Assembly: GCA_964455485.1 (NCBI GenBank)
Contig: CAYVXT010000003.1
Location: 1 to 41,298 of the forward strand
Reading direction: 5' to 3'
Length of the DNA: 41,298 bases
Source: an uncultured Candidatus Saccharibacteria bacterium
GTDB lineage: Bacteria > Patescibacteriota > Minisyncoccia > Phycocordibacterales > WO2-35-19
Below the pieces are notes generated by a model, which was not told the DNA's origin, made no database searches, and worked only from the letters and a program-made list of their open reading frames with translations. Shown here in pieces: positions 183 through 34,376 of the stretch; the stretch's first letter is position 1; each line of letters begins with the position of its first letter. Made by a program: the position numbers and the translations under genes.

Positions 183-552
183 AGGCTTTCATTCCGAGCA
201 TTAGCTCTATACCGTCTGGTATAGGGAGGAAAGTCCGAACATGCACTCTTTTTTAAAGAGTAGTACGGTAGTGGGTAACACCCATCGCCTCGTACCGTAA
301 GGTATGGGTAGAGGTGCGAACAGAAACGCTCGAACCGAAAGGGGAGAGATTCCGAAAGGAATTGTCATACGGAAACGTATGGATGCAACGGCTAAATCCT
401 TACCTGCATGCAAGGCCGTGCCTCGGCAATTTATTGCTGAGGAGTGCCGCTAATGCCCTGAGTTTAATCGAAGGGCTTGATCCGTTTGGTAACAAACGTG
501 ACAGATAAATTAATGCAGAGAAACAGAATTCGGCTTATGAGAATGAAAGCCT
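183..552 (+). ncRNA. rnpB: RNase P RNA (bacterial)
   Basis: Contains GGGAGGAAAGTCCGAAC (the conserved GAGGAAAGUCCG motif) near the 5' end and ACAGAATTCGGCTTATGA (the ACAGAAnnCGGCUUA motif) near the 3' end. A perfect 12-bp P1 forms between AGGCTTTCATTC (183-194) and GAATGAAAGCCT (541-552). Confidence 0.9.
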
Positions 553-557
553 ATAAA

Positions 558-594: not shown

Positions 595-740
595 TGGGGG
601 CAGGAGAGAAGTCTTGATCCTTACAGGATCTGTACACCTTTCGTATCGTACTCACCTTCGCCATGCTCAGGTTTTGTGCGATTTACTCAAGGTCTTCAAG
701 TCCTCCCACGCAAGCAAAGCAGTTTGCTTGCTCTGCCCAC
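595..740 (-). ncRNA. TEC-A: short tRNA-end-capped structured element downstream of tRNA-Leu(TAG)
   Basis: Read on the minus strand it runs GTGGGCAGAG, hairpin GCAAGCAAA-CTGC-TTTGCTTGC, GGGAGGACTTGAAG ... CTCTCCTGCCCCCA. The 3' end copies 11 nt of the tRNA 3' end (598-608 = 780-790). GAGGACTTGAA (reverse complement of 695-705) is the exact reverse complement of the tRNA T-loop plus 3' T-stem, TTCAAGTCCTC. Confidence 0.6.
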
Positions 741-778
741 AAAATAAAACACCAGCAAAAATGCTGGGTTTTATTTTG
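741..778 (-). terminator. Hairpin plus T-run after tRNA-Leu(TAG)
   Basis: On the minus strand the sequence is AAAATAAAACCCAGCA-TTTTT-TGCTGGTGTTTTATTTT. Confidence 0.6.
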
Positions 779-860
779 TGGGCAGGAGAGGACTTGAACC
801 TCCATTCCTTGCGGAACATGCTCCTAAGGCATGCGCGTCTACCAATTTCGCCACCTGCCC
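779..860 (-). tRNA. tRNA-Leu (anticodon TAG)
   Basis: Manual cloverleaf: acceptor GGGCAGG/CCTGCCC plus discriminator A, anticodon loop CTTAGGA, long variable arm, T-arm GGAGG-TTCAAGT-CCTCT. Confidence 0.9.
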
Positions 861-901
861 ATTTTTTATTTTAATTCAATATGCTATATTTTTAAACGAA
901 T

Positions 902-974
902 CCGCTCATAGCTCAGCTGGTAGAGCAGCTCCCTCTTAAGGAGATGGTCGGGGGTTCGATTCCCTCTGAGCGGA
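902..974 (+). tRNA. tRNA-Lys (anticodon CTT)
   Basis: Acceptor CCGCTCA/TGAGCGG plus A, D-arm AGCTCAGCTGGTAGAGC, anticodon loop CTCTTAA, T-arm GGGGG-TTCGATT-CCCTC. Confidence 0.88.
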
Positions 975-999
975 CTAAGATAATAACATAATTACCTTG

Positions 1000-1140
1000 T
1001 GCCTGGGGTGGGACTCGGTCACAACTCTTTTGTTTTCCAAAAGGTTTCGACCCCGCCTCGCCTGTTTCGTTTTGCTCAACATCGCTCCGGCTTTCTCGTC
1101 CCACTCGCAAAGCAGAGCAGTCTGCTTTGCTCACAGACAT
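1000..1140 (-). ncRNA. TEC-B: short tRNA-end-capped structured element downstream of tRNA-Leu(TAA)
   Basis: On the minus strand it runs ATGTCTGTGA, hairpin GCAAAGCAG-ACTGCT-CTGCTTTGC, GAGTGGGACGAGAA ... GGCGAGGCGGGGTCG, a hairpin, then GTGACCGAGTCCCACCCCAGGCA. A 21-nt exact repeat of the tRNA 3' end and flank is present (997-1017 = 1160-1180). Confidence 0.6.
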
Positions 1141-1161
1141 AAAATTCGCATTGCGAATTTT
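1141..1161 (-). terminator. Hairpin after tRNA-Leu(TAA)
   Basis: AAAATTCGCA-TT-GCGAATTTT palindrome immediately 3' of the tRNA. Confidence 0.55.
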
Positions 1162-1162
1162 G

Positions 1163-1244
1163 TGCCTGGGGTGGGACTCGAACCCACAAGCCTTTGGGGC
1201 AAGAGATTTTAAGTCTCTCGTGTATACCATTCCACCACCCAGGC
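1163..1244 (-). tRNA. tRNA-Leu (anticodon TAA)
   Basis: Acceptor GCCTGGG/CCCAGGC plus A, anticodon loop CTTAAAA, long variable arm, T-arm GTGGG-TTCGAGT-CCCAC. Confidence 0.9.
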
Positions 1245-1248
1245 AGGG

Positions 1249-8243: not shown

Positions 8244-8249
8244 TATACA

Positions 8250-8397
8250 AGAAATTAGTTCCGAGTATGACCTCGCTAGAGACTCGTACTATTTCCCGCC
8301 TGAGTCTCTACACAACCCTGCCAGTTTCCTCCCAGACATCTGCTAGGTTTTACTAAGGCGCAAGCCACCCCCCGACTTTGTTTCGGGGGATTTTTTT
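8250..8397 (+). ncRNA. Candidate small RNA of about 150 nt, unassigned
   Basis: It is bracketed by the promoter above and the terminator CCCCCGA-CTTTGTT-TCGGGGG plus T7. It contains a perfect 9-bp helix TAGAGACTC/GAGTCTCTA. It is visibly GC-richer than its flanks. The only ORF is a 30-codon one with no SD. Confidence 0.4.
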
Positions 8398-8452
8398 ATA
8401 AAATTTTAAGTTGATTGAATCGAAAAATATGTTAGATTTGTATATGCATATT

Positions 8453-8536
8453 GCGTCGGTGGTAGAGTGGTCAATTACAACAGACTGTAAATCTGTCGCC
8501 CATCGGGCTACGCAGGTTCGAATCCTGCCCGGCGCA
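8453..8536 (+). tRNA. tRNA-Tyr (anticodon GTA)
   Basis: Acceptor GCGTCGG/CCGGCGC plus A, anticodon loop CTGTAAA, class II variable arm, T-arm GCAGG-TTCGAAT-CCTGC. Confidence 0.9.
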
Positions 8537-8542
8537 CCCAGG

Positions 8543-8566: not shown

Positions 8567-8575
8567 TCTTACCTT

Positions 8576-8811
8576 TGCTCCGGGAGGAAAAGCGTGGGAC
8601 GCTTTTCCGTCAGGATTCGAACGACGGAGAGGGACCCGCTTTAGCAAAAGCGGGAGCGAGTCGGTGCCCAGACCAAAAAAGTTTTGACGAAAACTTTTTG
8701 AGTCGAGGGTGAGCTTGGGGTGGGACCCAAGCGCAAGACTTATTGAGACTGAACAAAGTGAGGTCCAATAAGTAGACAGCTTCTGTAAGAAGAAATTCCT
8801 GCCCGGCGCAC
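8576..8811 (+). ncRNA. TEC-Tyr-L: long tRNA-end-capped structured RNA (group-I-intron-like core?)
   Basis: 5' TGCTCCGGG pairs with 3' CCCGGCGCA. CAGGATTCGAAC (8611-8622) is the reverse complement of GTTCGAATCCTG in tRNA-Tyr. Three hairpins have compensated stems relative to the 39.1-kb copy. The last 15 nt (8797-8811) are identical to tRNA-Tyr 8523-8537. Confidence 0.65.
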
Positions 8812-8850
8812 AGGAAAAAATCGCATTGGCGGTTTTTCTTGTGCGCCGGG
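8802..8850 (+). repeat. Long inverted repeat using the duplicated tRNA-Tyr acceptor strand
   Basis: CCCGGCGCACAGGAAAAAATCGC-ATTG-GCGGTTTTTCTTGTGCGCCGGG. Confidence 0.6.
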
Positions 8851-8927
8851 CGAGTAGCTTCGATGATCAAATCGAAGCGTTACATAGGATTCGAAAGGTG
8901 GAAGAAATTTTTCAGCAGAAAAATTTC
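8848..8927 (+). ncRNA. TEC-2: 3'-truncated short element
   Basis: Hairpin GCTTCGAT-GATCAA-ATCGAAGC, then ATAGGATTCGAAAGGTGG, then hairpin AAATTTTTC-AGCA-GAAAAATTT. This matches the layout of TEC-Asn-S (38160-38291) but lacks the 3' tRNA-like end. Confidence 0.45.
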
Positions 8928-8951
8928 CTAAAAAATTGCTATAATAATAAA

Positions 8952-19296: not shown

Positions 19297-19367
19297 TGCC
19301 GGAGTGGATAAAAAGCAAACTGCTTTGCTTTTTATCCGAGCGTAGCGAGGTGGCCGACACTCTGGCA
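19297..19367 (+). ncRNA. TEC-F: minimal 71-nt element upstream of tRNA-Leu(CAA)
   Basis: TGCCGGAGTGG copies the tRNA 5' end (the 12-nt repeat 19296-19307 = 19400-19411). It is followed by hairpin AAAAAGCAAA-CTGC-TTTGCTTTTT, then CCGAGCGTAGCGAGGTGGCCGA, then CACTCTGGCA, which is complementary to the 5' copy. Confidence 0.5.
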
Positions 19368-19401
19368 TTATAGTAAAAATACTATAGTATATTTTTACAA
19401 T

Positions 19402-33203: not shown

Positions 33204-34376
33204 ATGGTAAATTTAGGATTTTGGAAAAAATCAAAAAGCCCAATATTGTGCTTGGCGCCGATGGCAGATGTTACAGATGCAGCTTTTAGATACATCATTG
33301 CAAAATATTCCAAACTTGCTCGAAGTCCAGAAAAAACTTCTTCGAGCGTGCCTAGCGAGCGCGACTGGCGCGAGCTCGAGGAATTTTCTAGCAAGAAAAT
33401 ATCCGTGCAAAGCGAGAAGAACGTTTTTTCTGGACTATACCCTTATGCTACTTGGACAGAGTTTGTGAGTGCAGATGGGTTGGTGAGAGCGCCGGAGGAG
33501 GGTAGGAAAAAGCTTTTGAAAGATTTGGAGTATTCTGAAATTGAAAGGCCAATAGTTGCACAATTTTTTACAAGCAAACCGGAAATGATGGAAAAGGCAG
33601 CAGCTCTAGCGGTGGAACTTGGGTTTGATGGTATTGATATAAACATGGGCTGTCCTGACAAAAGTATTGAAAAGCAAGGTGCGGGGGCTGCGCTTATAAA
33701 AAATCCAACACTTGCTAAAGAAATTATTTTGGCTGCCAAACGAGGTGTGGCCCTTCGACAAGCTCAGGGCGAACGACAACTTCCTGTATCGGTGAAAACA
33801 CGCTTGGGTTATAACAAAGATGAATTAGAAACTTGGCTACCTGCTCTTTTGGAGGCGGAGCCAGCTGTTATGACTATTCATGCGCGCACTAGGAAAGAGA
33901 TGTCAAAGGTGCCAGCAAGGTGGGAGAGGATAAGGAGAGCAGTGGAGATAAGGGATGAGATTCAAAGAACCTCACCCCTAGCCACTCTCCTAGAAGCAGG
34001 AGAGGGGAAAAACGAAGAGGGAAAGACCTTAATCTTCGGGAATGGGGATGTTTTGAGTGTGGAAGATGCATACAAAAAGTGTGCAGAAACAGGAGCAGAC
34101 GGAGCGATGCTTGGTAGAGCTATTTTTGGCAACCCGTTCCTTTTTTCGGGCCACACGCCAACTTTGGAAGAGAAGTTGAAAGTGTTGGTGGAGCATTCAA
34201 AACTTTTTGAGCAAAAACTTGGAGCCATCAAAAATTTTGCAGTAATGAAAAAACATTTTAAATCATATATAGGCAGTTTCAGTCACTCTAAAGACTTGCG
34301 CGAAAAGTTGATGGAAGCAGAGAGTGCTGGTGATGTAGAAAATGTGGTAAGTAATTTTTTGATAAGTTATAATTAG
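33204..34376 (+). CDS. tRNA-dihydrouridine synthase carrying in-frame GC-rich insertions
   Basis: Contains LAPMADVTDAAFR, DGIDINMGCP and VSVKTRLG, all Dus/FMN TIM-barrel motifs. Confidence 0.88.
   Translation: MVNLGFWKKSKSPILCLAPMADVTDAAFRYIIAKYSKLARSPEKTSSSVPSERDWRELEEFSSKKISVQSEKNVFSGLYPYATWTEFVSADGLVRAPEEGRKKLLKDLEYSEIERPIVAQFFTSKPEMMEKAAALAVELGFDGIDINMGCPDKSIEKQGAGAALIKNPTLAKEIILAAKRGVALRQAQGERQLPVSVKTRLGYNKDELETWLPALLEAEPAVMTIHARTRKEMSKVPARWERIRRAVEIRDEIQRTSPLATLLEAGEGKNEEGKTLIFGNGDVLSVEDAYKKCAETGADGAMLGRAIFGNPFLFSGHTPTLEEKLKVLVEHSKLFEQKLGAIKNFAVMKKHFKSYIGSFSHSKDLREKLMEAESAGDVENVVSNFLISYN
33315..33395 (+). repeat. 81-nt in-frame TEC-like insertion inside dus
   Basis: Terminal stem CTTGCT/AGCAAG, hairpin CTCGAAG...CTTCGAG, and GAGCGCGACTGGCGCGAG, which is nearly the same as GAGCGCGACGGCGCGAG in TEC-Asn-S. 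It encodes LARSPEKTSSSVPSERDWRELEEFSSK. Confidence 0.55.

Follow-up and report, generated by a model that had tools for sequence, protein, structure and literature searches.

Short non-coding elements in the 3' flanks of tRNA genes of Patescibacteria carry arms that match the adjacent tRNA

Why would the DNA just 3' of a tRNA gene end in a second copy of that tRNA's own 3' end? We met this question in a contig of an uncultured Candidatus Saccharibacteria bacterium (GenBank assembly GCA_964455485.1, contig CAYVXT010000003.1, positions 1 to 41,298 of the forward strand); this whole stretch of 41,298 nucleotides is called the window below. ARAGORN finds eight tRNA genes within it. The original prediction had placed two short elements, TEC-A and TEC-B, directly after tRNA-Leu(TAG) and tRNA-Leu(TAA) and had proposed that their ends are tailored to the neighboring tRNA. 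The observation is confirmed as real and its interpretation is supported by our results. Both elements belong to a family of non-coding elements of 100-250 nt in the 3' flanks of tRNA genes of Patescibacteria and some Elusimicrobia. The family is apparently undescribed so far: literature and full-text searches returned no description of a TEC-like element, and Rfam 15 gave no match overlapping any TEC (at E<=1-5 in the window, and at the gathering score in 27 loci). Known RNA families (ribozymes, tRNA, tmRNA, riboswitches and known motifs of the candidate phyla radiation, CPR) were ruled out by this lack of Rfam 15 matches.

TEC-B (997..1140, minus strand; RNA fold z = -4.6) is an intact family member. 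Its host gene, tRNA-Leu(TAA) (1162..1244, minus strand; called by ARAGORN and Rfam), is followed by an AT-rich spacer hairpin (1141..1161, minus strand). Read in the direction of the tRNA, the element starts with an imperfect complement of the acceptor 3' strand (about 1138->1132) and continues with a hairpin, HP1 (1130->1107), an antisense T-stem/T-loop segment GTGGGACGAGAA (1104->1093), a three-way-junction core AAAGCCGGAG...GCGAGGCGGGGTCG...GTGAC (1092->1018) and a direct copy (1017->997) that runs from C56 to the tRNA 3' end plus CAA, all on the minus strand. The direct copy, 997-1017, is 100% identical to 1160-1180 over the 21 nt originally claimed, with 0 matches expected from 100 shuffles. 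The antisense segment, which had been described as diverged, is 83% complementary to the T-arm of tRNA-Leu(TAA). Our covariance model R1 was built from 33 seed elements, 32 from other genomes and one, TEC-Asn-S, from the window. It scores TEC-B, which is outside the seed, at 54.2 bits (E about 8e-13) and TEC-Asn-S at 98.9 bits, the latter being partly circular for a seed member; the proposed co-linearity of these two elements is borne out by the match of one model to both.

TEC-A (595..741, minus strand; RNA fold z = -3.6) is a decayed family member and was not detected when the window was scanned with R1. Its parts, all on the minus strand, are an acceptor 3' strand complement (740->731), an HP1 with a CUGC loop (731->710), an antisense T-loop/T-stem segment GAGGACTTGAA (705->695), a degenerate core (694->619) and a degenerate direct copy of the tRNA 3' part (618->596, exact at 608->598). 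The host gene is tRNA-Leu(TAG) (778..860, minus strand; ARAGORN, and 58.7 bits with the Rfam tRNA model). Positions 598-608 equal 780-790 over 11 nt, exactly as claimed, and the similarity extends to 17 nt at 88% (592-608 vs 774-790). The sequence TTCAAGTCCTC occurs only twice in the window, in the tRNA (788-798, minus strand) and inside TEC-A on the opposite strand (695-705, plus strand), where 0.03 chance matches are expected. The TEC-A segment is therefore antisense to the T-loop of tRNA-Leu(TAG) and not a sense copy, as the original prediction held. Aligned with an element that follows tRNA-Leu(TAG) in another genome, TEC-A is co-linear over HP1, CGUG and the antisense T-loop and degenerate from there on.

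A terminator-like hairpin had been claimed after both tRNA-Leu genes, and a hairpin is indeed found at each. The spacer after tRNA-Leu(TAG) (742..777, minus strand) holds a bidirectional, terminator-like stem-loop with A- and U-tracts (752-767), which as a GC-rich hairpin with a U-tract passes the terminator scan, while the AT-rich hairpin after tRNA-Leu(TAA) fails it. The arms of stem-loop 752-767 continue as a perfect inverted repeat of 18 nt (733-750 / 768-785), by which the 3' end of tRNA-Leu(TAG) pairs with the start of TEC-A. A terminator hairpin in the spacer is no explanation for the TEC element itself. On the other side of TEC-A, a bidirectional terminator at 560-589 is common to the TEC-A / tRNA-Leu(TAG) side and to a class A RNase P RNA (186-553, plus strand). 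The latter scores 84 bits and goes unreported by a default scan because it falls under the Rfam gathering score of 100.

How widespread are such elements, and do they always sit next to tRNA genes? A search pattern taken from the conserved core matched at least 119 loci in a scan of species-representative genomes; the counts given below are for the matches listed. The first relatives recognized by the core pattern lie downstream of tRNA-Leu(TAG) in locus L004 and of tRNA-Lys in L002. By record title, the lineages include Saccharibacteria, Parcubacteria/Paceibacteria, Nomura-, Kaiser-, Yonath-, Taylor-, Falkow-, Yanofsky-, Campbell-, Moran- and Berkelbacteria, WWE3 and several Elusimicrobia metagenome-assembled genomes (MAGs). 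We found 107 of 126 cores 5-250 nt downstream of a same-strand tRNA, so that the objection that the elements might occur mostly away from tRNA genes does not hold. Independently of the search pattern, the covariance model found additional copies, most of them in the same position. Among 99 scored copies 26 isoacceptor types are represented; Leu, Ser and Tyr make up about half of the hosts, class II tRNAs being favored. About 10% of copies are orphans without an intact upstream tRNA. In the fetched loci generally, tRNA 3' fragments were found downstream of tRNAs in 63 of 224 cases (1 in the control) and tRNA 5' fragments upstream in 19 of 224 (1 in the control).

Several observations concern the loci themselves. 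Typical elements with tRNA-matched direct copies are present in high-GC Elusimicrobia MAGs outside Patescibacteria (L093, L106, L113, L139 and L146). Two small TEC-bearing contigs are labelled Gammaproteobacteria (L112, L141) and may be mis-binned. LOOT RNA (RF03000) scores above the gathering score in two TEC-bearing loci (L119 7855-7976 and L053 3852-3985).

In the direction of the tRNA, the order of parts is tRNA, spacer hairpin, optional acceptor complement, optional HP1, antisense T-arm, core, GUGAC and direct copy. The spacer hairpin is variable and terminator-like in about half of the copies. The complement of the acceptor 3' strand and trailer reaches at least 8 of 9 matches in 22 of 106 copies against about 1 expected, and HP1, where present, has the conserved top AAACUGCUUU. 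The antisense segment is the complement of the T-stem 3' strand plus T-loop and ends in GAYUYG-AA. Co-variation of a 5' strand with the tRNA had been anticipated, and this holds in altered form: no copy of the tRNA 5' strand serves as the 5' arm, a candidate ruled out by the six of six informative cases in which the acceptor arm follows the complement of the tRNA 3' strand and trailer. Since the elements are called as tRNAs by neither ARAGORN nor Rfam and their 5' arm follows the 3' strand complement, we also rejected the notion that they are tRNAs or tRNA pseudogenes.

The direct copy always begins at C56, directly after GUGAC. In the 56 in-register copies used for per-position comparison, identity to the local tRNA is 95-98% at positions 56-66 and 86-93% at positions 67-73, and then falls to 82% at 74, 68% at 75 and 41% at 76. 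This drop after 74-75 indicates that the duplicated piece extends from C56 to about N74/75. The last 19-20 nt of the tRNA are thus present twice, once in the working tRNA and once after GUGAC. Beyond the tRNA the direct copy follows the genomic trailer, with CCA only where it is encoded in the gene, as in L135, and it was therefore copied from DNA or a precursor and not from mature tRNA. A retro-copy of mature tRNA, similar to short interspersed elements (SINEs), is ruled out by the missing post-transcriptional CCA. Templating of the direct copy from the antisense arm is ruled out by the existence of full-length copies that have no acceptor arm.

Do the arms really follow the tRNA next to which they stand? 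Positions 61-73 of the direct copy are 67% identical to the element's own tRNA and 41% to permuted tRNAs (maximum 44% in 200 permutations). The two variable positions of the antisense T-loop complement the local tRNA in 96% of cases vs 52% after permutation, and the antisense T-stem positions in 86% vs 58%. At sites of drift in the direct copy, the antisense arm keeps to the tRNA, by 10 to 1 in the in-register set and by 155 to 18 overall. The check and the refuting condition of the original prediction were both applied to more than 100 loci of other genomes; all three segments beat permuted tRNAs, and the possibility that the ends do not track the tRNA is thereby disposed of. Each arm fits its local tRNA, and fixed terminal repeats of the type seen in miniature inverted-repeat transposable elements (MITEs) are absent. 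In an ordinary MITE the terminal inverted repeats are fixed and common to all copies, whereas TEC arms differ between copies and track the local tRNA, so we rejected assignment to this class, in agreement with the original prediction.

Between the arms lies a conserved fold. We examined it in an alignment of 33 compact copies, 89 nt long and gap-free, on which the three-way junction was specified by hand. P1 is formed by the antisense arm and the direct copy; P2a leads through an internal loop GGA/GA to P2b with a GACG/UACG-type tetraloop, and P3, a helix of 14 bp, contains a bulged A and ends in a CAGCAG loop. For the three-way junction, 91% of cells are paired and both sides have changed in 21 of 32 pairs. 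P2a, P2b and P3 are 97-99% paired, a level reached by 0 of 500 shuffles and lost when the partners are slid. The pair G45.U73 is invariant, and the excess of G.U over A.C (50 to 4) indicates that the folded strand is the tRNA-sense strand, as RNA or single-stranded DNA. On this strand the antisense and sense copies pair with each other and close the junction, with the outer part of P1 often unpaired. Minimum free energy folds of the window copies show the same layout (z from -3.6 to -7.1). From this conservation we infer that a single-stranded form would be under selection, most likely read-through RNA from the tRNA promoter. A promoter borne by the element was ruled out: one of consensus type follows the direct copy in just 5 of 116 copies.

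Evidence that TEC is added to tRNA genes comes from comparisons between loci. In L002, tRNA-Leu(TAG) is directly followed by the terminator common with RNase P RNA, while in the window the orthologous terminator stands after the TEC-A direct copy; spacer, arms and core are therefore extra material between C56 of the tRNA and the old 3' end. Relatives differ in which of their tRNAs bear a TEC, and decayed, truncated, tandem and orphan copies are all found, including perfect tandem units in L163 and L053. Exchange between copies is visible as well. In L135 the cores after tRNA-Val and tRNA-Leu(GAG) share 94% identity, where the background is about 60%, and stand behind unrelated spacers, and in the window two long copies after tRNA-Tyr and tRNA-Asn (Tyr-L and Asn-L) share a 3' module at about 96% identity while their upstream hairpins differ. 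Such mosaic identity fits gene conversion. As a separate observation, the differences between the two L135 cores (1143-1234 vs 1512-1603) are mostly clustered C-to-T changes on one strand, several of them kept as G.U pairs, and the direct copy beside these cores shows a change of CCC to TTT.

Comparison of genomes points in the same direction. In three genome pairs, which were picked for high tRNA identity and so attest that such cases exist and not how frequent they are, tRNA-Leu(TAG) is 100% identical, the TEC core 93-99% and the tRNA+TEC blocks 93-100%. Coding DNA of the same pairs is 65-70% identical where it aligns (L080/L149 and L072/L163) and does not align at all in L004/L153. RNase P RNA is about 83% identical in aligned blocks (L080/L149 only), and the two pairs with further tRNA types in common show 67-97% identity for those tRNAs. 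The identical block of L080/L149 runs from the tRNA 5' end to the end of the direct copy. Together these comparisons show turnover of TEC and a sharing of its modules, horizontal or intragenomic.

What, then, is TEC? The explanation that we favor, and to which we would give about an even chance, is an insertion module that is non-autonomous, spreads horizontally and has the tRNA 3' half as its attachment or homology site. Entry into a tRNA gene would occur by recombination across the identity from C56 to the 3' end, through homologous or homology-facilitated recombination after DNA uptake or through a site-specific recombinase acting in trans. The incoming unit would bring its own tRNA 3' half (often the whole tRNA), spacer or terminator, antisense arm and core; the resident 3' half would be displaced, become the downstream copy and decay, and gene conversion would swap internal modules among the copies within a genome. 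That the blocks end where tRNA homology ends is in keeping with homologous or homology-facilitated recombination following uptake of DNA, and the competence protein DprA is encoded in the window. A site-specific recombinase acting in trans would be expected to give the same product.

Several points weigh against an insertion module of this kind. No mobilizing enzyme was identified, no filled/empty pair from one population was seen, and a specific pattern gave 0 matches in viral contigs, so that no carrier element is known. The genome pairs carry the selection bias described above. A right arm of 19-20 nt is short for RecA-type recombination, and the colonizing of a new tRNA type, with the setting of a matching antisense arm, is unaccounted for. 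The terminator-like hairpin that about half of the copies have between tRNA and core would limit read-through transcription. Finally, near-identical tRNA+TEC blocks, covariation and conserved loop and junction bases would also fit a useful RNA under selection.

The search for a mobilizing enzyme covered the window and the surroundings of the listed loci. No recombinase, transposase or reverse transcriptase was found in the window open reading frames (ORFs) scanned, and none was recurrent near the at least 119 loci. Clustering of about 2,000 neighboring ORFs returned housekeeping families only, and a tyrosine-recombinase motif search near the listed loci gave four Xer-like genes, none of them adjacent to an element. 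The direct repeat of the tRNA 3' end that marks integrative elements is present (21 nt and 11/17 nt in the window; C56 to N74/75 in about 100 loci), with no integrase, neither a tyrosine nor a serine recombinase, inside the elements in the window ORFs scanned or in the listed loci. Strand-specific covarying hairpins invite comparison with the palindrome-associated transposable elements (PATEs) of IS200/IS605 and with repetitive extragenic palindromes (REPs) and their REP-associated tyrosine transposases (RAYTs), though no Y1 HUH transposase was found in the window or sampled loci. The 19-20-nt duplication has a fixed left boundary when compared with a target duplication of MITE type, and no autonomous partner was seen in the sampled loci. 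Nor did the window or the listed loci hold TnpB/IscB or an IS110-type recombinase in cis, as expected beside a bridge RNA or omega-RNA. An apparent link of the CCA-adding enzyme to TECs presumably reflects, most simply, synteny with one tRNA.

Two further candidates were also tried. Faint Pfam marks of a LAGLIDADG homing endonuclease in L002 were set aside, as the ORFs look like membrane proteins by eye and no tRNA fragment follows them. A phage or viral origin was rejected when blastn of the Tyr elements against 50,697 phage records returned nothing. An exact core 21-mer found one chance match in viral contigs, in a high-GC gene. A looser pattern gave 41 viral-contig loci, 40 of which are high-GC coding noise; the remaining one, L009, is a real tandem array beside cellular genes.

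A possible but clearly less probable explanation is that TEC is an RNA useful to its host: a tRNA-like RNA co-transcribed with the tRNA, with the same acceptor and T helices and a three-way junction in place of the T-loop. It could act in cis or in trans, for example by marking the transcript for processing by RNase P or RNase Z, by competing as a switch for the tRNA 3' half or by drawing off enzymes that target tRNAs as a decoy; selection would then keep the arms matched to the tRNA, and gene conversion would homogenize the cores. The covariation is of RNA type, and it comes with the invariant G.U, a UNCG-like tetraloop, tandem G-A pairs, conserved CAGCAG and CUGC loops and folds with an acceptor-like outer stem. 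TEC is always oriented in the tRNA sense, half of the copies have no terminator before the core, and in L080/L149 the sole terminator stands after the direct copy. TEC is also 98-99% identical where RNase P RNA is about 83%. However, many copies are decayed, truncated or orphaned, presence differs at orthologous tRNAs of relatives, and the acceptor arm is found in just about 20% of copies. Decay of the direct copy, with the antisense arm keeping to the tRNA, means that the P1 helix is not generally maintained. Identity to the local tRNA is demanded by no function, and relatives of the core occur at unrelated sites, including in frame in the dus gene.

Another possibility, which we consider rather doubtful, is that TECs are target-programmed, tRNA-mimicking RNA elements in which a three-way-junction scaffold carries arms copied from and complementary to the 3' half of the colonized tRNA, the RNA or single-stranded DNA directing insertion or homing into tRNA genes through an enzyme in trans. 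If so, they would be a bacterial counterpart of SINEs or of guides of the bridge-RNA type, with no gene of their own. It also seems unlikely that TEC is an RNA-guided or retro-mobile element whose arms guide or prime a recombinase, nuclease or reverse transcriptase encoded in trans and are re-templated for each target tRNA. Such an element would explain why a structured scaffold adjoins a target-identical segment of 19-20 nt at the fixed junction GUGAC|C56, why near-identical cores carry different tRNA-specific arms in one genome, and why the element depends on a strong upstream promoter and sense orientation. Yet no recombinase, TnpB/IscB or reverse transcriptase gene lies in cis in the window or the listed loci, and the two arms are mutually complementary, unlike those of known guides. 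Mature tRNA is not the template, given that CCA is missing from the direct copy, and the Tyr-L/Asn-L mosaic is better explained by gene conversion than by retargeting of a whole element.

That TECs are scars of integrase islands or prophages, with the direct copy as attR and the rest left after deletion of a larger integrative element, is very unlikely. The duplicated segment does run from the T-loop to the tRNA 3' end, which is the identity block typical of P4-type integrases, and in the window tRNA-Asn and tRNA-Tyr are each followed by a GC-rich island with orphan ORFs. Random deletion, however, would not have left one covarying core of 64-90 nt in more than 100 species, no integrase was found at any listed locus, and even units of just about 106-116 nt are complete and occur as tandem repeats. 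Chance similarity or plain tRNA pseudogenes from tandem duplication, which the tRNA-like ends might suggest, can be dismissed: ARAGORN calls no element as a tRNA, the exact repeats lie far outside chance expectation, the 5' arm complements the 3' strand and trailer instead of copying the tRNA 5' strand, and a covarying, non-tRNA core is common across phyla, which together with the permutation tests refutes this explanation.

Set against known systems, TEC works most like tRNA-targeting integrative elements and looks most like structured repeats of the type of MITEs and Rickettsia palindromic elements (RPEs), while failing defining features of both. Like P4-type islands and prophages, it duplicates the tRNA segment from T-loop to 3' end, leaves the functional tRNA intact with the displaced fragment downstream and builds up in tandem at one tRNA; unlike them, it has no integrase in cis, measures 100-250 bp as a whole unit, has a conserved covarying single-strand fold and contains an extra segment antisense to the tRNA 3' part. 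With MITEs, RPEs, REPs and bacterial interspersed mosaic elements (BIMEs) and IS200/IS605-derived PATEs it shares a small, non-coding, multi-copy, hairpin-rich and non-autonomous nature, and RPEs insert in frame into protein genes as the TEC-core relative in dus does. TEC differs from the MITE, REP and PATE types in arms that match each local tRNA, in a strict site 3' of the tRNA in sense orientation, and in that no partner transposase or RAYT was found in the window or sampled loci. On balance TEC is classed with small non-autonomous mobile or repeat elements at tRNA genes.

Looser parallels exist elsewhere. Integrative mobile elements exploiting Xer (IMEX) such as CTX-phi may offer an analogy, as they too lack a recombinase of their own and use a folded single strand whose stem reproduces the target as a duplex; TEC targets the tRNA 3' half and not dif, and has no attached phage genome. 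Plant mitochondrial t-elements and tRNA mimics of the mascRNA type likewise place an acceptor-like and T-stem-like helix beside a gene, and by this analogy it is plausible that the TEC helix is a substrate of RNase P, RNase Z or the CCA enzyme. In contrast to these, TEC helices copy the adjacent tRNA, a three-way junction stands for the T-loop, and many copies are decayed. As in IS110 bridge RNAs, TnpB/IscB omega-RNAs and SINEs, a scaffold abuts a target-identical stretch of about 20 nt in a non-autonomous element with an external promoter, but TEC has no linked recombinase, nuclease or reverse transcriptase, its arms pair with each other, and it lacks the CCA or poly-A signature of a SINE retro-copy.

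If TEC is an insertion module as we propose, tRNA genes across a very large part of the bacterial tree bear an unannotated, strongly structured element that spreads between divergent genomes without an encoded enzyme, with conserved tRNA sequence as its landing pad. Many of the tRNA fragments and long intergenic regions beside tRNAs that are so far unexplained in CPR genomes would be accounted for, RNA and repeat annotation would gain a family, and there would be a concrete system for studying target specificity of a gene-less element. Were the arms to act as guides, they would represent a new kind of programmable targeting, and if the RNA is useful to the host, organisms with minimal genomes would have a further, new level of tRNA biology.

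Besides the two Leu-flanking elements, the window holds further copies on the plus strand. TEC-Asn-S (38160..38291) after tRNA-Asn (38038-38112) is a canonical compact member, with a fold z of -7.1, GTGAC at 38267-38271 and a degenerate direct copy from 38272. TEC-Tyr-L (8574..8811) after tRNA-Tyr (8452-8540) is a long form in which the 5' half is as in the compact form, a module of about 130 nt takes the place of P3, and the terminus TCCTGCCCGGCGCAC equals the tRNA-Tyr 3' end. It is followed by a truncated second unit (8841..8950) with a complement of the tRNA-Tyr 3' end, HP1, antisense T-loop and a P3-like hairpin, and without a direct copy. TEC-Asn-L (39092..39330), the other long form, lies 1 kb downstream of tRNA-Asn and ends in an exact 15-nt copy of the tRNA-Asn 3' end (39314-39328). 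The 3' module of about 130 nt common to 8574-8811 and 39092-39330, GGTGCCCAGACC...GAGTCGAGGGTGAGCTTGGGG...GAAGAAAT, has no Rfam match and may be a second structured module nested in TEC. Consensus TTGACA/TATAAT promoters stand directly after direct copies at about 38296 and about 39331.

A mini TEC-like unit (19297..19368, plus strand; fold z = -4.8) lies upstream of tRNA-Leu(CAA) and combines 12-13 nt copied from the tRNA 5' end with HP1, core remnants (GCGAGGTGG) and CTCTGGCA. It is the window case of a more general pattern in which copies of the tRNA 5' end (the first 12 nt, often with leader and promoter) are found 65-155 nt upstream of tRNAs and mirror the 3' duplications; tRNA-Lys(CTT) is a frequent case. 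Just upstream of tRNA-Tyr, positions 8245-8395 (plus strand) contain a promoter of consensus type, about 130 nt of untranslated, GC-rich sequence and a terminator; they have no Rfam match and may encode an unknown small RNA.

The protein genes of the window include those for a short IF-2, RbfA, MiaA, ParB, DprA and Dus. The best matches of its ClpB are 88% identical and carry the name Candidatus Zambryskibacteria, which places the window in a CPR genome close to that group. GC-rich islands at 9.8-11.9 kb and 38.1-41.3 kb, downstream of tRNA-Tyr and tRNA-Asn, have a GC content of 0.43-0.52 against about 0.37, and their ORFs have no Pfam match except a weak EamA. In the dus ORF (33204-34376; tRNA-dihydrouridine synthase) a hairpin element lies in frame at 33315-33445 (plus strand). 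It is about 120 nt long, resembles TEC in its P2b and P3 modules, has an inverted repeat of 13 bp at its flanks (GTCCAGAAAAAAC / GTTTTTTCTGGAC) and scores 23.5 bits with R1; the Pfam Dus match is stretched by about 50 residues. Relatives of the dus element with non-tRNA arms are present in L049, L097, L111 and L080.

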